DNA of 57,427 bases from a virus. Taxonomy: Duplodnaviria; Heunggongvirae; Uroviricota; Caudoviricetes. Both the position numbers and the translations under genes were made by a program. Every line of letters starts with the position of its first letter. Positions within the stretch are counted from its first letter, which is position 1. Below the pieces are notes generated by a model. The model was not told the origin of the DNA and made no database searches. It saw nothing but the letters and a program-made list of their open reading frames with translations. Where the stretch lies: IMG/VR virus record IMGVR_UViG_2778261297_000008, one strand, 5' to 3'. Below are positions 8,078 through 53,613 of this stretch, in pieces.

Positions 8078-9038
8078 ATTAACCGGCTATGTATGGGATG
8101 GTTGCGCTGCGTCAGGCATGAAATTATCCAGCGTGGCAATTATGGCCCGCCTGGCTGATTTCAGTAATGACGAAGGTGTGTGCTGGCCATCAATTGAAAC
8201 TATTGCCCGTCAGATTGGCGCGGGGATGAGTACCGTCAGAACGGCTATCGCACGGCTGGAAGCAGAAGGCTGGTTAACGCGTAAGGCGCGTCGCCAGGGT
8301 AACCGCAATGCGTCGAATGTTTATCAGCTTAACGTTGCGAAGCTTCAGGCAGCGGCATTTTCTCAACTGTCAGATTCTGACCCGTCAAAATCTGACGCAT
8401 CAAAATCTGACCCGTCAAAATCTGACGCATCAAAATCTGACCCGTCAAAATTTGATGCGTCGAAATCTGGCAAAAAAGCGGGTTTTCACCCGTCAGAATC
8501 TGGCGGGGATCCGTCAGTAAAATCAAAACATGATCCGTCAGATAAAAAACCTTCTCGTCCGGACGCTTCGCAACCGGACACGCAGACGGCTGAACAGGAT
8601 TTTTTAACTCGCCATCCTGATGCGGTTGTATTCAGCCCTAAAAAGCGCCAGTGGGGAACGCAGGATGATTTGACCTGCGCACAGTGGCTCTGGAAAAAAA
8701 TCATTGCCCTGTACGAGCAGGCCGCCGAATGTGACGGCGAGGTGGTTCGTCCCAAAGAACCGAACTGGACAGCATGGGCAAACGAAATTCGCCTGATGTG
8801 TGTGCAGGATGGTCGTACTCACAAACAAATCTGCGAGATGTACAGCCGCGTCAGCCGCGATCCGTTCTGGTGCCGTAACGTGCTCAGCCCGTCGAAGTTG
8901 CGGGAAAAATGGGATGAGCTTTCCCTGCGCTTATCGCCGTCCGTCAGCACGCAAACAGAAAAACGTGAAGACCCGTACTTCAAAGCCAGTTACGACAACG
9001 TGGACTACAGCCAGATCCCGGCAGGATTCAGGGGGTGA
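8067..9038 (+). CDS. Phage replication initiator / replisome organiser (N-terminal winged helix; internal ori iterons)
   Basis: 323 aa; N-terminal HTH (IETIARQIGAGMSTVRTAIARLEAEGWL); internal DPSKSDASKS peptide repeats encoded by tandem 15-bp DNA repeats. Confidence 0.8.
   Translation: MSTKLTGYVWDGCAASGMKLSSVAIMARLADFSNDEGVCWPSIETIARQIGAGMSTVRTAIARLEAEGWLTRKARRQGNRNASNVYQLNVAKLQAAAFSQLSDSDPSKSDASKSDPSKSDASKSDPSKFDASKSGKKAGFHPSESGGDPSVKSKHDPSDKKPSRPDASQPDTQTAEQDFLTRHPDAVVFSPKKRQWGTQDDLTCAQWLWKKIIALYEQAAECDGEVVRPKEPNWTAWANEIRLMCVQDGRTHKQICEMYSRVSRDPFWCRNVLSPSKLREKWDELSLRLSPSVSTQTEKREDPYFKASYDNVDYSQIPAGFRG
8369..8473. repeat. Seven tandem 15-bp iterons (GTCAAAATCTGACSC-like), candidate phage origin inside the replication gene
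   Basis: Direct tandem repeats read in the sequence, with degenerate copies to ~8550; analogous to lambda ori inside gene O. Confidence 0.6.
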
Positions 9039-9040
9039 TC

Positions 9041-9529
9041 ATGAGTCTTTTGAATGACGTTCAGAAATTCATTGAAGCCCATCCGGGCTGTACTTCCGGA
9101 GACATTGCAGATGCTTTTGCTGGTTACTCACGGCAGCGCGTTCTGCAGTCAGCAAGCAAGTTACGTCAGAGTGGGCGTGTGGCTCACCGTTGTGAAGGAG
9201 ATACACGCAGACATTTCCCGCGCCTGACTGAGAGAGCGCAGGAGCCGGAACCACAATCGGTTCGTGAAACCAGACCTGTGCGCAATTTCTATGTCGGCAC
9301 TAACGACCCCCGGGTGATTTTGTGCCTGACCCGCCAGGCTGAAGAACTGGAGTCCAGGGGCTTATTCCGTCGAGCTGCAACGGTGTGGATGGCGGCATTC
9401 CGTGAAAGCCACTCCCAGCCAGAACGAAACAATTTTCTGGCGCATCGTGAGCGGTGCTTACGGAAAAGCAGCAAGCGCGCTGCATCGGGTGAAGAGTGGT
9501 ATCTGTCAGGGAATTACGTGGGGGCTTAA
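9041..9529 (+). CDS. PerC/Pch-like (ANR family) transcriptional regulator homologue
   Basis: C-terminal region EELESRGLFRRAATVWMAAF...RERCL resembles the PerC family; ORF-track start 9035 is GTG, ATG at 9041 has an SD. Confidence 0.5.
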   Translation: MSLLNDVQKFIEAHPGCTSGDIADAFAGYSRQRVLQSASKLRQSGRVAHRCEGDTRRHFPRLTERAQEPEPQSVRETRPVRNFYVGTNDPRVILCLTRQAEELESRGLFRRAATVWMAAFRESHSQPERNNFLAHRERCLRKSSKRAASGEEWYLSGNYVGA

Positions 9530-10182
9530 TGAGTAATAAATATTGCCAGGCGCTGGTGGAGCTGCGGAACAAACCAGCCCATGAACTGAAGGAAGTGGGC
9601 GATCAGTGGCGCACGCCGGACAACATTTTCTGGGGAATTAACACCCTGTTTGGCCCGTTTGTTCTGGATCTGTTTACTGATGGTGATAACGCCAAATGTG
9701 CCGCGTATTACACGGCGGAAGACAACGCGCTGGCGCATGACTGGTCAGAACGTCTTGCGGAGCTTAACGGTGCTGCCTTTGGTAATCCCCCGTACAGCCG
9801 CGCCAGTCAGCATGAGGGGCAATACATCACCGGCATGCGTTACATCATGAAACATGCCAGTGCTATGCGTGATAAAGGCGGGCGCTATGTTTTCCTGATC
9901 AAAGCTGCCACCAGCGAAGTGTGGTGGCCGGAAGATGCAGATCATATTGCTTTTATTCGCGGGCGTATCGGTTTTGAACTGCCTGCCTGGTTTATCCCGA
10001 AGGATGAGAAGCAGGTGCCGACAGGAGCTTTCTTCGCTGGTGCTATTGCTGTTTTCGACAAGACCTGGAAGGGACCGGCAATCAGCTACATCGGGCGCGA
10101 TGAACTTGAGGCATGTGGTGAGGCCTTTCTGGCGCAGGTTCGCCAGCAGGCAGAAAAACTGGTCAGGGAGATGGTGGCATGA
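9529..10182 (+). CDS. Phage Dam-family DNA N6-adenine methyltransferase
   Basis: NPPY motif (FGNPPYSR); start ATG overlaps upstream stop. Confidence 0.8.
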   Translation: MSNKYCQALVELRNKPAHELKEVGDQWRTPDNIFWGINTLFGPFVLDLFTDGDNAKCAAYYTAEDNALAHDWSERLAELNGAAFGNPPYSRASQHEGQYITGMRYIMKHASAMRDKGGRYVFLIKAATSEVWWPEDADHIAFIRGRIGFELPAWFIPKDEKQVPTGAFFAGAIAVFDKTWKGPAISYIGRDELEACGEAFLAQVRQQAEKLVREMVA

Positions 10183-13128: not shown

Positions 13129-13581
13129 TTATATGTGGGGTAATATCCAGTTTATTTTCCTCCAGGTACTTGCAAATGAAACTATTGATACGATCAGGGT
13201 CGAGAAACCATATAAGGTTAGGGCGAAATCAAGTCTTACAGAGGTAATGGTGATTTTTTCATTTATAAACATTGCTATCAGCGGGAAAATACATGCTAAT
13301 ATTAAGGTAACTCCCGTAGATAACAGGTTATGAATAATTTTAGGTAAAATCTTGTTTTGTTTTAAAGCAAAAATAATTCCATCAGTACTTGAACTTGCAG
13401 AACTGAAGATGGAAATAGCGGCCAATACAAAACCAAACAAAATGCCTGCCACCGTAGATAACACTCCGGCTGTACTTAAGATATCAGAGTGAGCCATAGG
13501 CGCTAGGTATTTCCCAAGCACCCAAGCTAACAGCCCACTGATAACTATGTTAATTAAAACTTTAATAAGCATAATCATCAT
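13129..13581 (-). CDS. Small integral membrane protein (~4 predicted TM helices), second gene of an AT-rich two-gene cassette
   Basis: 150 aa with four long hydrophobic segments; SD AAGGA before ATG; 14 bp downstream of the 310-aa gene on the same strand. Confidence 0.7.
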   Translation of the reverse strand: MMIMLIKVLINIVISGLLAWVLGKYLAPMAHSDILSTAGVLSTVAGILFGFVLAAISIFSSASSSTDGIIFALKQNKILPKIIHNLLSTGVTLILACIFPLIAMFINEKITITSVRLDFALTLYGFSTLIVSIVSFASTWRKINWILPHI

Positions 13582-13595
13582 CCTTAAAAATAAGA

Positions 13596-14528
13596 TCAGA
13601 TTTCATATTGCTTTAAATACTGACCATGTTCAATTTTAGCACTGATCAAGGCAGTACGCACATCTGTTTCTTTTGCGTAGCCATCTTTTGTGTTAATGTT
13701 TTTTTCACTGATCAGAACTTGATTGAGAAGACTCCTTGAATGAGTATTTTTAGGTTCAGTGACATTAGCTTTACGTAATAAGTGAGGAACTTTTTCTATT
13801 AATTCCTTTATTCCACTTTTTACTTCATCACTGAGATAACCACGGATTAATTTACGTTGCGATGCTCTACCTCTAAGTGATAGTTTTAAATGCGAACCGC
13901 CCATCCCAGCCATCATTTCAATCATACTTTTGGAAAATGAATTCGAAAGGTCATAATCCGTTGCGCTAAAATTACGTGGAGCGGCGAGTGTAATTTCACA
14001 GCTACGTAAAGTGCTTCCTGTTTCAAGTAGTTCTTTTACACTTTCTTTTTTCCAAATTGCCTCAAACGCTACAGGTTTGTTTTCTTCAGAAAAATTGAAT
14101 AAAAGAAATGCTAAATCGGAAACTTTAGGTCCTAAATGATTTTGAGATAAAACAAGAATGTCTTTCTTATAGTAGTAAATAAAATAAGTGCGTTCGACTA
14201 TATATTTTTTATCATCTAACGGAATATTGTGCTCATCCCAATTTTCATCACCAATATAAGGTAAGTGGAAACCATCACGAGAGCATGATAGATAACCAAA
14301 ATAGAACTCCGCCTGTGCGTCTTTTTCTAAGAATACAATCTTTAATTTTTTCTTATCAAACTCAGCGGTATAAGAATTTTGCGAAGGTGTAACAATGGTT
14401 GTATACATGTTGTCAAATGCAAGTTGTGCATTTGATGTAGTTGACTTCGTTCCTGAGGAGCTTTGGAAGAAACCGATACGCATTTTTTTTTGTTTAGTTA
14501 GTGGCGCGGAAGTGGCTGTAGTAGTCAT
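13596..14528 (-). CDS. Uncharacterised 310-aa soluble protein, first gene of the two-gene cassette
   Basis: Long ORF in a visibly AT-rich block with a plausible SD; no motif I can assign (no Walker A, HEPN, PD-(D/E)xK or nucleotidyltransferase signature seen by eye). Confidence 0.75.
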   Translation of the reverse strand: MTTTATSAPLTKQKKMRIGFFQSSSGTKSTTSNAQLAFDNMYTTIVTPSQNSYTAEFDKKKLKIVFLEKDAQAEFYFGYLSCSRDGFHLPYIGDENWDEHNIPLDDKKYIVERTYFIYYYKKDILVLSQNHLGPKVSDLAFLLFNFSEENKPVAFEAIWKKESVKELLETGSTLRSCEITLAAPRNFSATDYDLSNSFSKSMIEMMAGMGGSHLKLSLRGRASQRKLIRGYLSDEVKSGIKELIEKVPHLLRKANVTEPKNTHSRSLLNQVLISEKNINTKDGYAKETDVRTALISAKIEHGQYLKQYEI

Positions 14529-16300: not shown

Positions 16301-16516
16301 ATGAAATCCATGGATAAGTTAACAACGGGTGTCGCCTATGGCACCTCAGCAGGTAGTGCCGGGTACTGGTTTTTACAGTTGCTCGATAAAGTCACGCCCT
16401 CACAGTGGGCGGCAATAGGTGTGCTGGGTAGTCTGGTATTTGGCTTGCTGACGTATCTGACAAACCTTTATTTCAAGATTAAAGAAGACAAGCGTAAGGC
16501 TGCACGGGGAGAGTAA
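16301..16516 (+). CDS. S: Phage-21-type pinholin (S21-like), dual-start motif MKSM
   Basis: 71 aa; near-identical to recalled S21 (...[14 protein letters not shown]...[12 protein letters not shown]...[10 protein letters not shown]...RKAARGE); SD GAGGTGGGG. Confidence 0.88.
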
Positions 16517-16520
16517 TTCA

Positions 16521-16865
16521 ATGACTCAAAAATATGAACTGATTGTGAAAGGGATCCGCAATTTTGAGAATAAAGTTACGGTAACTTTAGCGTTACGGGA
16601 CAAAGAACGCTTTGACGGTGAAATTTTTGACCTGGACATCTCGCTGGACCGTGTTGAAGGTGCCGCGCTGGAGTTTTATGAGGCAGCAGCCAGAAGGAGC
16701 ATCAGACAGGTCTTCCTGGATGTTGCTGCCGGGTTATGTGAAGGGGATGAGCTGTCGCCGGAAAAGCGCCCCATAATTTTAGAGGCGCAGAATGTGTGGA
16801 TAACCTACAAAGGAAAGCTACCGGGAAGAATTACTGGTTCTCTGAAGACTCCGCCGAAATGGTAA
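16521..16865 (+). CDS. Hypothetical 114-aa protein inserted between holin and endolysin
   Basis: ATG with SD GGGAGAG 5 bp after the holin stop; no recognisable domain. Confidence 0.5.
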   Translation: MTQKYELIVKGIRNFENKVTVTLALRDKERFDGEIFDLDISLDRVEGAALEFYEAAARRSIRQVFLDVAAGLCEGDELSPEKRPIILEAQNVWITYKGKLPGRITGSLKTPPKW

Positions 16866-17208: not shown

Positions 17209-17751
17209 ATGAACGTAAAAATCAGATACGGCCTGTCGGCTGCCGTTCTGGCACTGATTGCCGTCGGTGCGCCTGCGCCTGATATTCTCGACCAGTTTCT
17301 GAATGAAAAAGAAGGTAACCACACAACGGCATACCGCGATGGTTCCGGCATCTGGACCATCTGTCGGGGTGCCACGGTGGTGGATGGAAAACCCGTTTTT
17401 CCCGGTATGAAACTGTCGAAGGAAAAATGCGACCAGGTTAACGCCATTGAACGGGATAAGGCGCTGGCATGGGTGGAGCGCAATATTAAAGTGCCACTGA
17501 CCGAACCACAGAAAGCGGGTATAGCGTCATTTTGTCCCTATAACATTGGCCCCGGTAAGTGTTTCCCGTCGACGTTTTATAAGCGGCTGAATGCCGATGA
17601 TCGTAAGGGGGCATGCGAGGCGATTCGCTGGTGGATAAAAGATGGTGGGCGTGATTGCCGCCTGACAAAAGGGCAGAAGAATGGCTGTTATGGGCAGGTC
17701 GAGCGGCGCGATCAGGAAAGCGCACTGGCGTGCTGGGGGCTGGAGCAATGA
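17209..17751 (+). CDS. R: SAR endolysin (phage-21 R21-like lysozyme with N-terminal signal-anchor-release domain)
   Basis: 180 aa; hydrophobic Gly/Ala-rich N-terminus (LSAAVLALIAVGAPAP) followed by a T4-lysozyme-like region. Confidence 0.85.
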   Translation: MNVKIRYGLSAAVLALIAVGAPAPDILDQFLNEKEGNHTTAYRDGSGIWTICRGATVVDGKPVFPGMKLSKEKCDQVNAIERDKALAWVERNIKVPLTEPQKAGIASFCPYNIGPGKCFPSTFYKRLNADDRKGACEAIRWWIKDGGRDCRLTKGQKNGCYGQVERRDQESALACWGLEQ

Positions 17752-18284
17752 AAATTAATCCGGATCTTATAGGCGTTGTCGTTATTGCTGGCCTTTCGGT
17801 CGCTCTCGTCAAGAGTTGCTCTCACGCCAGTAATCTTCAGAGCGATAACGACGTTCTGCGAAGTGACAACTCTATGCTGGGGCAGGTAATCGCCACCCAG
17901 GCATTCAACTTCAATCGATTCAATCAGGTTGCAGAACATGCCAACAGTCTTAACTCCCTGATCGACACCAGCACCGAAAAAACCGTAATCGAATACCGGG
18001 AGATTCTCCGCCGTGAAAAAACCTGTGATCTGCCTGTTCCTGCTGATATCGCTGGTGGGTTGCTCGAATACACGTACCGTTTACGTGCCAGCGCCATGCA
18101 CACCGATACCGGCAGACCTAATGAAGCCTATGATCGTACCGCTACCACCAGCTCAATGACCTACTGCCAAGCTGTCTTGTGGATTAAGCCGCTACTGGCG
18201 TTGATAGAAAAAGGAAATAATAATTTTTCGAGTATTCGTGAAATTGATGAGTTGCGTTACAGACCATCTGAGCATGGCCAGTAA
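17748..18284 (+). CDS. Rz: Rz-like i-spanin
   Basis: ATG overlaps the R stop; N-terminal TM segment; embedded Rz1-like ORF in the +1 frame supports the call. Confidence 0.7.
   Translation: MKINPDLIGVVVIAGLSVALVKSCSHASNLQSDNDVLRSDNSMLGQVIATQAFNFNRFNQVAEHANSLNSLIDTSTEKTVIEYREILRREKTCDLPVPADIAGGLLEYTYRLRASAMHTDTGRPNEAYDRTATTSSMTYCQAVLWIKPLLALIEKGNNNFSSIREIDELRYRPSEHGQ
18013..18159 (+). CDS. Rz1: Rz1-like o-spanin lipoprotein embedded in Rz (+1 frame), GTG start
   Basis: Translation VKKPVICLFLLISLVGCSNTRTVYVPAPCTPIPADLMKPMIVPLPPAQ: lipobox LVGC then Pro-rich mature peptide. Confidence 0.65.
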   Translation: MKKPVICLFLLISLVGCSNTRTVYVPAPCTPIPADLMKPMIVPLPPAQ

Positions 18285-18452
18285 GGTTGCAGGAAATTTA
18301 AAATCTGGCGATGAAATTTAATATTAGAAATTCATTGCCTAGTGAGATTAATAATGGGCATCCCTTTGTGACGATAAGCTTTAACACATTCACAAAGGGA
18401 TATTTAATATAGGGTGGTTAATTCCCACTTGCTGTGGTGTTTAGGGGGTAAT

Positions 18453-19145
18453 TCAAATCTTATCTAACTCATTATAGGCTTCGATAATAAAAATTCTGAT
18501 TTTAATAAGGCATGATTCAATGAAAGGAATTACTTCATGGTCATTCCCATGGAATCTTATTTTTTTCTCTTCGGTAATGACTATGTTTAAAGGTACACCA
18601 TTACCACTTCTTTGTAATTTCCCATTTTCGAAAGTAAAGTCTTCTAATTTTTTGCCATTGATGTGGTTGTTTTTAAAGAGAATTTTTGCTGAGCTTCCTG
18701 CTGTGATTAAACCAAAACCATCTACGCTCACACTTAGGTCTTTAACAGAACTCTCTTCTCTTAAGGGGATTGGTTGTCTGTGCTTTACTTCATTAGTGAG
18801 ATTACACATCATTTCCAACCAAGATTCGCCAGTGTGATAATCCTGTATAGAAGTAAAAATTTTATATAATGGAGAAGATGATGGTGGGTTTATTTTTAGC
18901 GTCTTTGAGAAAAATTTATCAATAAACTCTCTTTTTCCGTAAGGGAAATATATTTTGGGGCGCTCATCATTACTGCGTGGAGAAATATATTTATCATAGG
19001 TATCATTAGCGAGATACTCTAAGGAACTTCGTAAGTTTTCCAAAATAGCTTTGACTTTTACAGGCTTGATATGCTGTGTCTGTCTCATTATGTCAAGACT
19101 TTCTTCAACTTCTTGCAATAAGTCCAACGAGCCTTCTCTAGACAT
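18453..19145 (-). CDS. Uncharacterised 230-aa protein encoded on the opposite strand between the lysis cassette and cos
   Basis: ATG with SD AAAGGAGA; AT-rich by eye; opposite orientation to flanking late genes; no assignable domain. Confidence 0.7.
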   Translation of the reverse strand: MSREGSLDLLQEVEESLDIMRQTQHIKPVKVKAILENLRSSLEYLANDTYDKYISPRSNDERPKIYFPYGKREFIDKFFSKTLKINPPSSSPLYKIFTSIQDYHTGESWLEMMCNLTNEVKHRQPIPLREESSVKDLSVSVDGFGLITAGSSAKILFKNNHINGKKLEDFTFENGKLQRSGNGVPLNIVITEEKKIRFHGNDHEVIPFIESCLIKIRIFIIEAYNELDKI

Positions 19146-19519
19146 ACAGGTAATTCTCCTTTATGAATTTTCAACATGTTATAACTAATAATATATTTAT
19201 CATATAACTGTATGAATAAATTGTGAGATTAGTAATGCAAGTTTCTATCCATAGTGTTCTCTAAGTACCCGCTTCCATCATGTTGTTACGGACGGTATGG
19301 CTAAAACAAAGCACCTGAAGTTAAACGTTCTGAACTTTATGCTCGTTGAGCATATGAATTATCTGTAACCCGATGCGCTGGTTGTGGTTCACATTGATGG
19401 TCGTAATCAGCAGCGGTGGTGCCTGATGGCATGCAACTTCTTACTTATAAAACTTCGTATGGAATTGTTGCCATAACGAGCCCAGCTTAGCAGTTTTTAA
19501 TGGGTCCTCCCGGCAGTGT

Positions 19520-19700
19520 GTCCTGCCACGGGGCGGGAGCGTCGCGGAAAAAGGCTAGTTTTTGAAATTTTATTCGTCATCACCACTACTGTAATTGATT
19601 GATATTACAGTGGTTTTATTTTTATGGTGTCGATTCTGATTGTTTTTTGTTCATCACTAACACCGTTTGCCTAAAGTTGTTCGCAAGATGCATGTTTAAA
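19520..19700. other. Candidate cos region (cosN/cosB) upstream of the small terminase gene
   Basis: GGGCGGGAGCGTCGCGG...TTCGTCATCACC resembles recalled lambda cos (GGGCGGCGACCTCGCGG...TTCGTCATAAC); palindrome CTGTAATTGATTGATATTACAG nearby. Confidence 0.35.
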
Positions 19701-19716
19701 ACATTCTGGAGCGGGT

Positions 19717-20211
19717 ATGGATCGAGAGTTAAAAAATCTGACGCTGAATATCAGTCAACTGGCGGCATTGTCAGGTGTACATCGCCAGACTGCTGCGGCA
19801 AGGCTGCAAAATCTACCCGTTGCAGGGGGGCATGAAAGCAACCTCAAGCTTTATCGGGTGGTTGATATTGTGTCGGCATTTCTGGCATTACCACCGCCGG
19901 TTGCAGAAGGCGAAATGGACGCGCATGAGCGCAAAGCCTGGTATCAGTCTGAACGTGAGCGTCTTAAGTTCGAACAGGAAACGGCACAACTCATTCCGGC
20001 CAGTGATGTCAGACGGGAGTTTGCCATCTGGGCAAAAGCGGTCGTGCAGGTGCTGGAGACATTACCGGATATTCTTGAACGTGACTGCGGTCTGCAGCCT
20101 GCCGCTGTGAGTCGTGTTCAGTCCATTATTGATGATCTGCGCGATCAGATAGCCCTGCGGGTGACTGAAGCAGGTGCGGATGATGAGGAGGAATTACAGC
20201 AGGAGGAGTAA
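19717..20211 (+). CDS. Terminase small subunit
   Basis: 164 aa with N-terminal HTH (LNISQLAALSGVHRQT), directly upstream of and overlapping the large terminase start. Confidence 0.8.
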   Translation: MDRELKNLTLNISQLAALSGVHRQTAAARLQNLPVAGGHESNLKLYRVVDIVSAFLALPPPVAEGEMDAHERKAWYQSERERLKFEQETAQLIPASDVRREFAIWAKAVVQVLETLPDILERDCGLQPAAVSRVQSIIDDLRDQIALRVTEAGADDEEELQQEE

Positions 20212-22313
20212 TGCTGAATCAGGAAACCGCAAAGGCAGCACGAACCGATTCAGGTTATATCCTTCGCGCACCGAGACGAATGCGGGTTGCTGATGCCGTT
20301 GCTCAGTATATGCGGGTGCCTATGGGGGCAGGGAACTCAGTCCCGTGGGATCCGCTGGTGGCACCGTATGTTATTGAGCCTATGAACTGCCTGGCCTCGC
20401 GTGAATACGACGCAGTGATATTTGTTGGCCCGGCACGAACCGGCAAGACTATCGGCCTGATTGACGGCTGGGTGATTTACAACGTGATTTGCGATCCTGC
20501 TGATATGCTGATCATTCAGATGACGGAGGAAAAAGCCCGCGAACACTCCAAAAAACGACTCGCCAGAACGTTTCGCGTCAGCCCGGAAGTGGTCAGTCGC
20601 CTGAGTCCGAACAAAAATGACAACAACGTTTATGACAGAACATTCCTTGCTGGCAACTACCTGAAAATCGGCTGGCCGTCAGTCAATATCATGTCTTCAT
20701 CAGATTATAAATGCGTGGCGCTGACGGATTATGACCGTTTTCCGGAAGATATTGATGGTGAGGGGGATGCCTTCTCTCTTGCCTCAAAACGTACCACCAC
20801 ATTTATGTCCAGTGGTATGACGCTGGTGGAGAGTTCCCCCGGCAGGGATGTGAAGGATGTGAAATGGCGACGGACTTCACCGCATGAGGCTCCACCAACC
20901 ACGGGGATCCTGTCGCTCTATAACCGTGGCGATCGCCGTCGCTGGTACTGGCCCTGTCCACACTGTGGTGAGTATTTTCAGCCCTGCGGCGATGTGGTTG
21001 CTGGTTTCCGTGATATTGCCGATCCTGTGCTGGCAAGTGAGGCGGCTTATATTCAGTGTCCTTCCTGTTCAGGACGGATTTTGCCTGAACAAAAACGCGA
21101 GCTGAACGGACGTGGGGTCTGGTTACGGGATGGTGAATCCATCAATGCAGATGGCAGTCGTTATGGTGATCCCCGGCGTTCACGTATTGCGTCATTCTGG
21201 ATGGAGGGTCCGGCAGCTGCTTATCAGACACTCTCGCAACTCGTTTACAAACTGCTTACTGCAGAACAGGAATACGAGACAACCGGAAGTGAAGAGACAC
21301 TCAAGACGGTTATCAATACCGACTGGGGATTACCTTATCTTCCCCGCGCCAGCATGGAGCAACGAAAAAGTGAATTGCTTGAGCAGCGGGCAGAGCCAGT
21401 TCCTTCCCGCAGTGTGCCGGATGGCGTTAATTTCCTTGTGGCGACAGTGGATGTGCAGGCGGGACGTCATCGCCGTTTTGTGGTTCAGGTAACGGGCTAT
21501 GGCAGCCGTGGCGAACGCTGGATTATTGATCGTTACAACATCACGCAGTCATTGCGCGGTGACAGCGACGGGGAGAGCCAGCGAATTGATCCGGCCAGCT
21601 ATCCGGAAGACTGGGATGTCCTGCTGACGGATGTTTTTCATAAAAGCTGGCCGCTGGCCTCCGATCCTTCTCAACAAATGCGACTGATGGCAATGGCGGT
21701 GGACTCCGGCGGTGAAGACGGGGTCACTGATAATGCCTATAAATTCTGGCGTCGTTGCCGTCGTGATGGCCTTGGTAAACGTATTTACCTGTTTAAGGGT
21801 GACAGCATCCGGCGCGCAAAACTGATCAGCCGTACATTCCCTGATAACACCGGACGAACGGGCCGCCGGGCGCAGGCCGCAGGTGATGTGCCGCTCTGGC
21901 TTCTTCAGACGGATGCCCTGAAAGACCGGGTGAATAACGCGTTATGGCGTGACTCGCCAGGTCCCGGCTATGTGCATTTCCCTGACTGGCTGGGGAGCTG
22001 GTTTTACGACGAACTGACGTATGAAGAGCGGAGCAGTGACGGGAAATGGAGTAAGCCGGGTCGCGGTGCCAACGAAGCTTTTGACCTGATGGTGTATGCC
22101 GAGGCTCTGGTCATTCTGCATGGATACGAAAAGATCCGCTGGCCGGATGCACCGGAGTGGGCGAGCCGGGAAACCTGGCTGGAGTGTGTCCCGGACAGTA
22201 CCGAACCGTCACCCACACCGGAACCGGTATCCACGCCTGTTAAAAAACAAAAACGGAAGAAAACAGTAACTGACGATGTTAACCCCTGGCTGACTTCCGG
22301 AGGATGGTTATGA
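20211..22313 (+). CDS. Terminase large subunit (lambda gpA-like)
   Basis: 700 aa; size, position and overall similarity to the gpA family; SD AGGAGGA. Confidence 0.93.
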   Translation: MLNQETAKAARTDSGYILRAPRRMRVADAVAQYMRVPMGAGNSVPWDPLVAPYVIEPMNCLASREYDAVIFVGPARTGKTIGLIDGWVIYNVICDPADMLIIQMTEEKAREHSKKRLARTFRVSPEVVSRLSPNKNDNNVYDRTFLAGNYLKIGWPSVNIMSSSDYKCVALTDYDRFPEDIDGEGDAFSLASKRTTTFMSSGMTLVESSPGRDVKDVKWRRTSPHEAPPTTGILSLYNRGDRRRWYWPCPHCGEYFQPCGDVVAGFRDIADPVLASEAAYIQCPSCSGRILPEQKRELNGRGVWLRDGESINADGSRYGDPRRSRIASFWMEGPAAAYQTLSQLVYKLLTAEQEYETTGSEETLKTVINTDWGLPYLPRASMEQRKSELLEQRAEPVPSRSVPDGVNFLVATVDVQAGRHRRFVVQVTGYGSRGERWIIDRYNITQSLRGDSDGESQRIDPASYPEDWDVLLTDVFHKSWPLASDPSQQMRLMAMAVDSGGEDGVTDNAYKFWRRCRRDGLGKRIYLFKGDSIRRAKLISRTFPDNTGRTGRRAQAAGDVPLWLLQTDALKDRVNNALWRDSPGPGYVHFPDWLGSWFYDELTYEERSSDGKWSKPGRGANEAFDLMVYAEALVILHGYEKIRWPDAPEWASRETWLECVPDSTEPSPTPEPVSTPVKKQKRKKTVTDDVNPWLTSGGWL

Positions 22314-51123: not shown

Positions 51124-53613
51124 ATGACTACCAACAAGAGGCATATTTTATTAAACGGCTATGTTTCCCCCGAAAACTATCGCTCTAGGAGCAATGGTCG
51201 TAGTCCCCAAGTCCCAGCTCGTGATCGAGCGGTACATGGTATATCATTACTAAATCAGTATAGCCGTATATTGAATCATTATGATGAAAGACCGAGGCTT
51301 CCCCCTGTTACTGATGAAAAAGGGATTTATGTTAGGCTAATCAGTTTTGAACAATGCGATCTTCCTATAGATAAAATCGATAATACTTATTTCAAGCTTT
51401 GTTCTTTAGTTAAATCAAATAATCGTGAAACTGCGATTATATACATTAATGAAAATGACAGAACTAAATTCACTAAAAAAATAAATGACTATTTGAATCC
51501 ATCGAAGGATGGTATCGAGTTCCCTAGAAATCATTTGTTAATTGATAGCATACAAAATATCGAGTTAGCAGATATAACTTCTTTCTGGACAGATAAAAAA
51601 GATCTTATTCCGGATGATCACGGTGTTGAAAAGTGGTTTGAGCTTTGGCTTAAGGGTAATAAGGAGGATGTGCTAAATATTGCTCGGCGTTTATGCGAAA
51701 GAATTAATGGAAGGCTCGGGAATACTTCTATTAATTTTTTCGATACTACTGTTGTTCTTATCCGTACGAGTCTATCGAGATTAAAAGTTTGTCCTGAATT
51801 AATATCTAATTTAAAAGAGATAAGATCAGCGAGGGATGATATATCAGTTATAGTTAATTCCTTACCTACAGAACAGCATCAGTGGGCAGAAAATGTTGCT
51901 GCAAGAATTACGCGTAACAATGAAGCTGATGTTTCTGTTTGTATATTAGATACAGGTGTTAACTACAATAATCCACTATTATCTAGATTTACTAACTCAT
52001 CACTGGCAGCTGCTTGGGACATATCTTGGCCACTTTTCGATGATTATAATCAAAGGCCTTATAATGACCACGGTTCCAGACAAGCAGGACTATGTGTTTA
52101 TGGAGATTTCCTGTCTGTTTTATTGAACGATCAGGACATTTCGATTCCGTACAATATCGAATCAGGAAGGATACTACCTCCAAGAGCTACTAATGATCCT
52201 AATCTTTATGGAGCTATTACTACAGGAACGTCAAGTCGTCTGGAGCTGGAAAACCCGAACTGGCGCAGAGTTTATTCGCTTGCTGTGACAGCAGAGCCTA
52301 ATACTCTTGGAGGCCAACCGTCCTCATGGTCTGCAGAGATTGACAAGTTTAGTTTTGGTTTAGAGGATGATATCCGCAGATTATTTATAATTTCTGCGGG
52401 TAACTCTCAACCTACAAATTTAGAATTAGATTATTGGGATTCAGTGACTCTTGCTGAAATTGAAGATCCTGCTCAATCTTGGAATGCATTAACTGTAGGG
52501 GCGTATACTGATAAAACAACCCATACAGACCGCGAATATGATGGTTGGTCTCCTTTCGCTATGTCAGAAGATATTGCACCGTCATCTCGGTCATCGGTAT
52601 CCTGGGGATGGAAAAAGCATGCCCCATATAAGCCAGATTTAGTAGAGGAAGGCGGAAACAAACTTATATCACCTAGCCGTGATGAAATCACAAATACAAT
52701 TGAATTATCTTTGCTCACAACCTCTGGCAGGGCAACAAATCAATTGTTTGAAGTTAATTCAGATACTAGCGCAGCCTGTGCTCTAGTATCAAAACATGCT
52801 GCTATGCTAATGGCTCAGTACCCAGAATATTGGCCTGAAACTATTAGGGGATTACTTGTTCATACAGCAAGATGGACTAGTCGTATGCACGAACGATATA
52901 GAACAGAACGTGCACAGGGGACACCAAAATCGGCTAAAGAAAGCTTATTAAGGATGGTTGGTTATGGAGTACCTAATTTAAATCGAGCAATGCATAGTGC
53001 GGAAAATGCACTTACATTAATATCTCAGTCGGAAATCACCCCATTTAAAAGAGATGGTTCTACTGATCCTACATTGAATGAAATGCATCTGTTTTCACTC
53101 CCTTGGCCCGTAGAAGCTCTTCGCTTACTACCACCAGAAACAAATGTTATTTTAAGAATCACATTGTCGTATTTTATTGAACCTAATCCAAGTCAAAAAG
53201 GATTCAGACGACAATATTCGTATCAATCTCATGGATTGAGATTTGCAGTTATTAGACCTAATCAGACCCTTGAAAATTTCCGTGCTTCGATAAACCGTAA
53301 TGCGAATAATGAAGAATACAATGGACCTGAAGGAGATGCGTCAGGATGGTTTCTGGGGCCTCAACTCAGAGTTAGAGGTTCATTACACTCAGATGCTTGG
53401 AAAGGCAGTGCTGCAGATTTAACAGAGATGAATACTATCGCTGTCTATCCTGTTGGTGGATGGTGGAAATATCGTACTGCGCAGGATCGCTATATTAACA
53501 ATGTTAAATATAGTTTATTGGTTAGCATAGATGTACCAGATGAGAACATTGATATTTACAGTGAGATTCAAAACATTATTCAAATTGATAATCAAATAGA
53601 TATTGAACATTAA
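51124..53613 (+). CDS. ietS: Subtilisin-like S8 serine peptidase (IetS-like), 829 aa
   Basis: Candidate catalytic triad contexts ILDTGV (Asp), NDHGS (His), DTSAACA (Ser); co-oriented 8 bp after the AAA+ gene. Confidence 0.8.
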   Translation: MTTNKRHILLNGYVSPENYRSRSNGRSPQVPARDRAVHGISLLNQYSRILNHYDERPRLPPVTDEKGIYVRLISFEQCDLPIDKIDNTYFKLCSLVKSNNRETAIIYINENDRTKFTKKINDYLNPSKDGIEFPRNHLLIDSIQNIELADITSFWTDKKDLIPDDHGVEKWFELWLKGNKEDVLNIARRLCERINGRLGNTSINFFDTTVVLIRTSLSRLKVCPELISNLKEIRSARDDISVIVNSLPTEQHQWAENVAARITRNNEADVSVCILDTGVNYNNPLLSRFTNSSLAAAWDISWPLFDDYNQRPYNDHGSRQAGLCVYGDFLSVLLNDQDISIPYNIESGRILPPRATNDPNLYGAITTGTSSRLELENPNWRRVYSLAVTAEPNTLGGQPSSWSAEIDKFSFGLEDDIRRLFIISAGNSQPTNLELDYWDSVTLAEIEDPAQSWNALTVGAYTDKTTHTDREYDGWSPFAMSEDIAPSSRSSVSWGWKKHAPYKPDLVEEGGNKLISPSRDEITNTIELSLLTTSGRATNQLFEVNSDTSAACALVSKHAAMLMAQYPEYWPETIRGLLVHTARWTSRMHERYRTERAQGTPKSAKESLLRMVGYGVPNLNRAMHSAENALTLISQSEITPFKRDGSTDPTLNEMHLFSLPWPVEALRLLPPETNVILRITLSYFIEPNPSQKGFRRQYSYQSHGLRFAVIRPNQTLENFRASINRNANNEEYNGPEGDASGWFLGPQLRVRGSLHSDAWKGSAADLTEMNTIAVYPVGGWWKYRTAQDRYINNVKYSLLVSIDVPDENIDIYSEIQNIIQIDNQIDIEH

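Follow-up and report, generated by a model that had tools for sequence, protein, structure and literature searches.

A single gene of 230 codons on the strand opposite to the late operon of a lambdoid prophage raises two questions: whether it is part of the phage backbone or optional cargo and, if it is cargo, what its product may do. We addressed them in the window, i.e., the whole stretch of 57,427 nucleotides of the IMG/VR record IMGVR_UViG_2778261297_000008 (Caudoviricetes). A preliminary description of this DNA had seen in the gene a moron and a candidate for an accessory or exclusion function expressed in the lysogen.

The gene between the lysis genes and cos

Over the intervals compared (18285-19716 and 17209-20800) the window is 100% identical to a prophage of E. 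coli EC09 that adjoins tRNA-Thr and proA. The features of the region are as follows (coordinates of the window; strand where assigned).

16301-16516: P21-type holin
16521-16865: DUF1327
17209-17751: lysozyme
17748-18284: Rz-like gene, ending 168 bp before the stop codon of the 230-aa gene
18013-18159: Rz1-like lipoprotein ORF, embedded in the Rz-like gene
18285..19501: whole cargo cassette of 1.2 kb, as very probably delimited here (168 bp downstream, the gene, 356 bp upstream)
18360..18401, no strand: perfect 12-bp inverted repeat ATCCCTTTGTGA / TCACAAAGGGAT with an 18-nt loop, between the convergent stop codons of the gene and Rz
18453..19145, minus strand: coding sequence of the 230-aa protein, PHROG 13652 (ORF, purifying selection, length beyond that of simulated ORFs)
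19155..19162, minus strand: Shine-Dalgarno sequence AAAGGAGA (reverse complement of 19155-19162), 10 nt 5' of the ATG
19178..19227, minus strand: candidate promoter region, two overlapping sigma-70-like matches (9 of 12), by consensus matching only
19179-19187, minus strand: TAGTTATAA block with a -10-like TATAAC, shared with the upstream DNA of the lambda-like E. coli homologue and the Enterobacter homologue
19717-20211: DUF1441, in the small-terminase position
20211-22313: TerL

The 230-codon ORF starts with the ATG at 19145-19143, and its product is WP_000085744.1, annotated as 'hypothetical protein'. It is a real gene on which purifying selection acts. When compared with a 63%-identical homologue it has a dN of 0.26 with dS saturated, giving a dN/dS of ~0.06, and in 5,000 first-order Markov simulations of 18285-19501 the longest ORF reached 192 aa (median 65) versus the 230 aa present there. 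The GC content is 0.32–0.35 over ~18200-19250 and 0.48–0.56 on both flanks. The gene itself has a GC of 0.34 and a GC3 of 0.31, unlike the neighbouring phage genes (lysozyme, Rz, DUF1441 and TerL), for which GC is 0.48–0.54. The picture given in the preliminary description, of a single 230-aa gene with a Shine-Dalgarno sequence in AT-rich DNA, thus agrees with the ORF, with AAAGGAGA and with the GC of 0.34. The long AT-rich upstream region that it also described has to be shortened, since the DNA is AT-rich for ~100–150 bp only and GC is 0.48 over ~19250-19500.

The records of the cdtI phage, Tritos and mEp460_4F5 all start at sequence that aligns to positions 19526-19531, where the window reads GGGCGGGAGCGT. 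This agrees at 9 of 12 bases with the lambda cosN (cohesive end), which would set cos at ~19531. Because the phage records begin at this point and GGGCGGGAGCGT resembles cosN, the gene was correctly placed earlier between Rz (ending at 18284) and cos (~19531) and antisense to the late operon; the gene and Rz are convergent. The slot is the one in which lambda carries bor.

In the three enterobacterial alleles the TAGTTATAA block lies 34–42 nt 5' of the ATG, and the upstream conservation among them is limited to a short promoter-proximal stretch that includes this block, while their downstream flanks are unrelated. The number of promoter consensus matches in the region, nine, is not above the shuffle expectation of 6.2 ± 2.7. 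Each enterobacterial allele has its own Shine-Dalgarno sequence, and homologues in other prophages have GGAG or AAGGTGA. The 176-nt 3' region with the inverted repeat has a z-score of −2.7, and the repeat at 18360-18401 is possibly a bidirectional terminator or a transcript-stabilising hairpin. An Rfam scan of the cassette returned nothing credible, and no conserved small ORF was found in it.

Distribution of the cassette

Among 5,426 complete E. coli genomes the gene is carried by 103 (~2%), always in a single copy. The conserved phage backbone restarts at 19502, and the cos-proximal flank that begins there occurs in 2,109 of the same genomes; the full 1,432-bp interval is found in 97 (~5% of those with the cos flank). 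The upstream 356 bp (19146-19501) are restricted to carriers of the gene (98 genomes) and have no match among phage records. Since this DNA is confined to carriers, the mobile unit corresponds to 18285-19501.

Close relatives of the prophage lack the gene at the same position. In two prophages whose lysozyme and DUF1441/TerL genes are nearly identical the slot is ~680 bp long and holds no annotated gene, and in a Qin-like relative the space between Rz and cos is occupied by cspI, ymcF, ynfN and gnsB. Homologues occur in the same antisense slot of a lambda-like prophage of ETEC1738 (Nu1, A, W, B, C, D, E; 63% amino acid identity) and of an HK97-like Enterobacter prophage (HNH, Terminase_4, TerL; 70% identity), so that the same slot and orientation recur in three phage backbones with three unrelated terminase types. 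Single opposite-strand homologues are also found within prophages of Vibrio (36% identical) and of Pseudomonas. A tblastn search of 50,697 phage records gave no match to the 230-aa protein, and the matches in a plasmid collection were one E. coli record (834 kb) and two records of Bacillus pseudomycoides.

The optional presence, the foreign GC content, the antisense strand, the variability of the slot and the homologues in two other backbones give good support to the moron part of the preliminary description: the gene is present in 103 of the 5,426 genomes as against 2,109 with the cos flank. We are therefore highly confident that 18285-19501 is a self-contained moron cassette, an optional cargo of an E. 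coli lambdoid prophage.

A broad family and its genomic neighbours

The only library match of the protein is PHROG 13652 ('unknown function'), over the full length with an E-value of 3.7e-159. Pfam and NCBIfam gave no match, PADLOC-DB v2.0.0, which covers systems described up to 2023, gave no family at E ≤ 10, and neither phmmer nor a profile search found a match among PDB sequences. When 134 diverse members were used as queries, no consistent Pfam family was matched and PADLOC returned scattered single chance matches only. The protein nevertheless belongs to a large family. Its 74 close relatives, mainly of Enterobacteriaceae, are all ~230 aa long, and in a library clustered at 50% identity 1,033 representatives match at E ≤ 1e-3, 503 of them at E ≤ 1e-10. 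In GTDB species genomes we found 44 loci, spread over Proteobacteria, Bacteroidota, Deinococcales, candidate-phyla bacteria, Planctomycetota and two archaeal MAGs. In a set of 5.8 billion proteins the matches that bear a name are all called 'hypothetical protein' and Pfam domains are absent from every match, and the longer members offer no informative fusion, their extensions being unannotated or weakly matched to DUF6941. The accession WP_000085744.1 was not found in any paper, and the protein is absent from the DefensePredictor supplements, in which four accessions and two sequence strings were looked for. No library or paper within the scope of these searches names the family.

The neighbours were compared at ~40 loci by all-against-all BLAST of the genes up to four positions to either side and within 6 kb. 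No partner gene recurs outside one Neisseria synteny group, and none of the loci has an adjacent gene of the MNT or RnlB/Dmd-like antitoxin kind. In the Neisseria group a gene for a 515-aa ATPase overlaps the homologue by 4 bp. This candidate partner was dropped because it is a yejF-like duplicated ABC-transporter ATPase of a permease operon, thus a housekeeping gene, and because it is not conserved elsewhere.

The remaining neighbours are mixed. Mobile-element genes (terminase, integrases, IS110, P2 GPA) are found, PemK/MazF toxins adjoin some homologues, and the defence genes nearby comprise AriAB, MzaA, DRT UG29, MADS components, BrxH, DpdF and type II methyltransferases. Homologues also reside outside phages, including in chromosomal islands. 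The distribution of the family suggests a conflict or accessory gene.

In Oleispira the gene stands in an apparent integron-type array of small cassettes on the same strand.

Many members of the family are found among housekeeping genes, an observation that counts against an HEPN effector.

Predicted fold and conserved residues

The structure was modelled by AlphaFold2 from an alignment of 29 sequences (mean pLDDT 89.4, pTM 0.74). The model is a confident one. Helices at residues 3-23, 28-53, 72-82 and 92-119 are followed by the beta domain of residues 128-198, after which the C-terminal helix takes up 205-229, and in the model the helices form a four-helix up-down bundle of HEPN topology. The structural matches with their scores, and the coding positions of the main elements of the protein, were as follows.

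4nqf, HEPN domain protein: 9.2
8xdj, HEPN toxin: 9.0
5hy3, LsoA: 8.5
1jog, HI0074: 8.2
7ae2, HEPN toxin: 8.0
5yep, HEPN toxin: 7.9
18552..18764, minus strand: codons of the inserted beta-rich domain, ~residues 128-198 (model and regional conservation)
18780..18794, minus strand: codons of T117-N118-E-V-K121-H122, a variant of the HEPN Rx4-6H motif (134-member alignment)
18999..19052, minus strand: codons of K32-T49, the conserved polar face of helix 2 (K32, E36, R39, S40, D/E43, Y44, D48)

A Foldseek search of the PDB returned nothing significant, HEPN toxins appearing at E~0.7–1 only; against BFVD it returned a single viral protein without a name, A0A514TZW7 (E 1.3e-4).

The conservation is highest in helix 2 and in the motif helix (mean top-residue frequency 0.58–0.59) and lowest in the beta domain (0.26), which is also the most variable in length (65–90 residues). 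In helix 2 an acidic residue at position 43 is present in all 134 members, followed by R39 (129/134), S40 (124/134), K32 and Y44 (123/134 each), E36 (117/134) and D48 (113/134). H122 of the motif helix is equally invariant (134/134), with K121 in 133 and N118 in 125 members, and elsewhere P68 is kept in 134 and Q101 in 133 of the 134. This conservation is enzyme-like. T117-N118-x-x-K121-H122 aligns with the R-N-x-x-x-H of HEPN proteins in such a way that Asn and His are kept. The position of the Arg is taken by T in 94, V in 15, N in 13, S in 5, A in 3 and L in 2 of the 134 members and never by R, so the canonical Rx4-6H motif is absent from all of them. The spacing in helix 2 is E-x2-R and R-x3-[DE], versus the Ex3[KR] that is typical of HEPN domains.

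Neither Pfam nor the PDB profile search links the family to any recognised HEPN family. An ORF that neighbours the homologue in a Dojkabacteria MAG (L045, 9094-9732), with the canonical motif LRNSMAHR and a similar helix/beta/helix layout, was considered as a bridge to HEPN proteins and rejected: hhalign aligned it motif to motif with E=0.33, the database contains no relatives of it, and the HMM of the family does not detect it.

According to the published account of the HEPN domains (PMC3710099), RNase L, RloC and PrrC all require the His of the motif, and the Arg is typically followed by N, D or H, a residue that aids catalysis in the KEN domain. The Parep1/8 families retain the His without the Arg, and other conserved basic residues may serve in its place; a second conserved acidic residue is common to many HEPN families, and Csx1 has a beta-hairpin inserted directly after the motif (PMC3710099). 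The absence of the motif Arg therefore makes membership in the HEPN group less likely yet still possible, since families that keep H without R are on record. The family fits within this range of variation, though the canonical motif is lacking and there is no profile link, and we regard an HEPN-like fold of the 230-aa protein, as predicted by the model, as probable. A homology and structure search had been proposed in the preliminary description as a check of an accessory function; its outcome is divided, the structural part giving an HEPN RNase-like fold on the predicted model and the homology part giving no match to a known defence family.

The N-terminus, MSREGSLDLLQEVEE, is acidic, and the protein has neither a signal peptide nor a lipobox. 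Its one hydrophobic stretch, in the C-terminal helix (205-223, Kyte-Doolittle 1.66), is packed into the bundle in the model (pLDDT 96–98). With these properties the protein is not an envelope moron of the Bor/Lom/Cor type.

Proposed function and alternatives

Since the predicted shape resembles that of the RNA-cutting HEPN enzymes, an anti-phage role is the best guess. In our best reading, which we would put somewhat below an even chance, the protein is a stand-alone HEPN-like effector with a variant motif, carried in a moron cassette and probably serving abortive infection or exclusion. The RNase and defence mechanism that goes with it is offered tentatively. We infer an HEPN fold, on the basis of the predicted model, and further RNase chemistry, sensing by the beta domain, expression in the lysogen and a defence phenotype, which would combine in the following way. 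The lysogen would transcribe the gene from its own AT-rich promoter, and during lytic growth the convergent, Q-antiterminated late transcription would oppose it. The protein would stay inactive until the variable beta domain, proposed to be a sensor or regulatory module, senses a component of the infecting phage; tight self-inhibition is assumed here, a free-standing RNase without an antitoxin being in need of such control. The helical domain would then cleave RNA in a metal-independent manner by means of the invariant His122 together with Lys121, Asn118, Arg39 and Asp/Glu43. Translation would stop and the infection would be aborted, as with the single-protein HEPN effectors Tha, AbiV and the nuclease domain of PrrC.

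The strongest competitor, though in our judgement rather unlikely, is a non-catalytic HEPN-like or helical-bundle protein that binds a nucleotide, RNA or a host protein and alters host physiology or prophage regulation (lysogenic conversion). The missing motif Arg speaks for it, and HEPN domains without the motif can indeed be non-catalytic binding domains, as in MtlR (PMC3710099). It is also favoured by the many homologues amid housekeeping genes, such as the Neisseria gene inside an ABC-transporter operon, and by the fact that no defence model matches. On the other hand, the invariance of His122 and the near-invariance of K121, N118, R39, D/E43 and Q101 across phyla look more like an active site than like a binding surface, and the label 'inactive' is kept for domains devoid of conserved charged or polar residues (PMC3710099). 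The sporadic, mobile-element-linked spread and the AT-rich antisense cassette are, moreover, typical of conflict genes.

The likeness of the fold to the HEPN toxins of the HEPN-MNT and RnlA/LsoA systems could also mean that the gene encodes an addiction or stabilisation toxin, which would arrest growth unless checked by an unrecognised antitoxin and would stabilise the prophage instead of keeping out other phages. Such an antitoxin might be a small ORF or an antisense RNA from late read-through, which the convergence with the late operon would indeed yield, and PemK/MazF toxins lie near some homologues. We hold this to be distinctly improbable, because no MNT or other conserved partner exists at the ~40 homologues, the cassette has no conserved small ORF and Rfam finds nothing in it, and the flanks are not conserved between backbones save for the short promoter-proximal block.

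Phage accessory slots also house anti-defence genes, and the variable beta domain could bind a host immune protein; the product might thus be a counter-defence or host-takeover protein used by the phage during infection or induction. This is very unlikely, given that an antisense gene would collide with late transcription and has its own upstream region, that homologues occur in non-phage contexts (the integron-like cassette array, the chromosomal islands), and that tblastn found no copy in the 50,697 phage records. Finally, a phage-intrinsic packaging or lysis accessory protein, suggested by the proximity of cos and the terminase genes and named in the preliminary description as the finding that would overturn its proposal, can effectively be dismissed: only 97 of the 2,109 E. 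coli genomes with the same cos flank (~5%) carry the cassette, close prophages with the same DUF1441/TerL lack it, the gene adjoins three unrelated terminase types and occurs outside phages as well, and it has a foreign composition on the strand opposite to the late operon.

Returning to the HEPN-like effector, one may go further and see in the whole family an unrecognised branch of HEPN-like nucleases with an arginine-less T-N-x-x-K-H site and a fast-evolving beta sensor, i.e., a new single-protein abortive-infection receptor that prophages spread as an antisense moron of the lysis-cos junction. The breadth of the family on which this doubtful extension would draw is PHROG 13652 and at least 1,000 clusters at 50% identity, from bacteria and some archaea. 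If the proposed HEPN-like defence role holds, a widespread family unmatched by Pfam, NCBIfam and PADLOC models would count among the single-gene anti-phage effectors, and the HEPN scaffold would prove able to function without its signature arginine. The lysis-cos junction of lambdoid prophages, the slot of bor, would become a new site for the systematic search for defence cargo, comparable to the hotspots of P2 and P4. Should the inference fail, there is still a well-defined cassette of 1.2 kb that is easy to clone, that ~2% of E. coli genomes carry and that offers clear point mutants (H122A, K121A, R39A). In itself, to find a hypothetical gene at a moron position is ordinary; attention is due to how broad the family is, to the clean cassette, to its recurrence across backbones and to the unusual motif.

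Comparison with known systems

The gene shares with lambda bor and other morons between Rz and cos the slot, the strand opposite to the late operon and the optional presence among relatives. Bor is a small outer-membrane lipoprotein, whereas the 230-aa protein has no signal peptide or lipobox and shows an enzyme-like conservation.

In contrast to the HEPN RNases (HepT/HEPN-MNT, 5yep, 7ae2 and 8xdj; LsoA/RnlA; Csm6/Csx1; the nuclease domain of PrrC), the present family never has the Arg of the Rx4-6H motif. Unlike them, the family has a beta domain of 65–90 residues that in the model splits the bundle before the last helix, has no MNT, RnlB or CARF partner, and has no match to Pfam HEPN models or to PDB sequences.

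In S. aureus prophages, Tha is a tail-activated HEPN system with an established anti-phage phenotype (PMC11087260). Compared by description only, it is a 301-aa protein whose HEPN domain lies at the C-terminus and has the canonical R265NSIMH270, and it is encoded near int/xis of Gram-positive phages, whereas the 230-aa gene occupies the slot between Rz and cos.

The lactococcal Abi proteins (AbiV, AbiU2, AbiD/F, AbiJ) differ from the present family in domain layout, and the family matches neither Pfam HEPN_Abi nor the Abi models of PADLOC. They are at the same time stand-alone proteins of mobile elements with an HEPN-type effector, as we propose for the 230-aa protein, and AbiV, too, departs from the canonical motif by way of an alternative His (PMC3710099).

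Flanking regions of the antisense gene

The 356 bp lying 5' of the 230-aa gene (window 19146-19501) were found only together with the gene (98 genomes). The distal 250 bp of this region have a normal GC content and contain no credible ORF, no Rfam match and no phage match. The region could be a regulatory one or the remnant of a gene. At the other end, the 3' region forms a better fold than its shuffled versions do (z -2.7). Rz and the 230-aa gene converge here, and their stop codons enclose the following element:

18360-18401, inverted repeat with perfect 12-bp arms and an 18-nt loop

This repeat may serve as a candidate bidirectional terminator, though late-operon transcription has to pass it.

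The spacing downstream of the gene is different in the HK97-like Enterobacter prophage (L002), where 1.3 kb (8690-10001) without any called gene separates the stop codon of the homologue from the next called gene of the lysis module; the E. coli counterpart of this gap is only 168 bp long.

Other known and putative accessory cargo in the window

A second antisense insert, AT-rich (GC about 0.32) and composed of two genes, is located between the Q antiterminator gene and the DNA methyltransferase gene:

13129-13572 (-), 147-aa hypothetical protein
13596-14528 (-), 310-aa DUF6731 protein

Neither of the two proteins has a PADLOC match. The insert looks like another moron.

Beyond the tail-fibre genes, the window carries known defence cargo, namely an AbiTii-domain protein and an IetA/IetS pair:

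46797-47717 (-), AbiTii-domain protein (PADLOC, 3.4e-36)
50129-51115 and 51124-53613 (both +), IetA/IetS pair (AAA ATPase, 5.5e-77; S8 peptidase, 2.9e-34)

Beside these genes there are an IS110 element, an orphan HigA gene and an ImmA/IrrE gene accompanied by an HTH gene, and the same region also holds TrbJ/TrbL/TraJ remnants and an IS1 element.

Distribution and genomic settings of the family

The protein encoded at 18453-19145 is matched over its full length by PHROG 13652; despite this match, our tblastn search of 50,697 deposited phage genomes yielded no copy of the gene. Within the collections covered, members of the family come solely from prophages and cellular genomes.

At two further loci the family member lies next to ORFs that may be of HEPN type. 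In Marinobacter (L012, 9138-11269) it is flanked on both sides by ORFs of HEPN-like appearance, one of which gives a weak match to HEPN_AbiU2 (E 0.047), while in a Dojkabacteria MAG (L045, 9094-10442) a single upstream ORF bearing the canonical RNSMAH motif is separated from it by a 2-bp gap. These arrangements suggest tandem HEPN-type genes, but the similarity does not reach significance.

Further settings are provided by Neisseria (L006, L021, L022 and L029) and by two Oleispira metagenome contigs:

L006 8001-8720, Neisseria family member
L065 5971-6663, Oleispira family member
L066 3562-4254, Oleispira family member

The Neisseria gene is inserted in an ABC-transporter operon that resembles yej, where it shares 4 bp with the ATPase gene downstream of it; for an accessory gene this is an odd location. 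In Oleispira the gene lies within a run of small ORFs, all on the same strand, that includes beta-lactamase, acetyltransferase, Tae4/Tai4, a group II intron RT and transposases; this run resembles the cassette array of a chromosomal integron.
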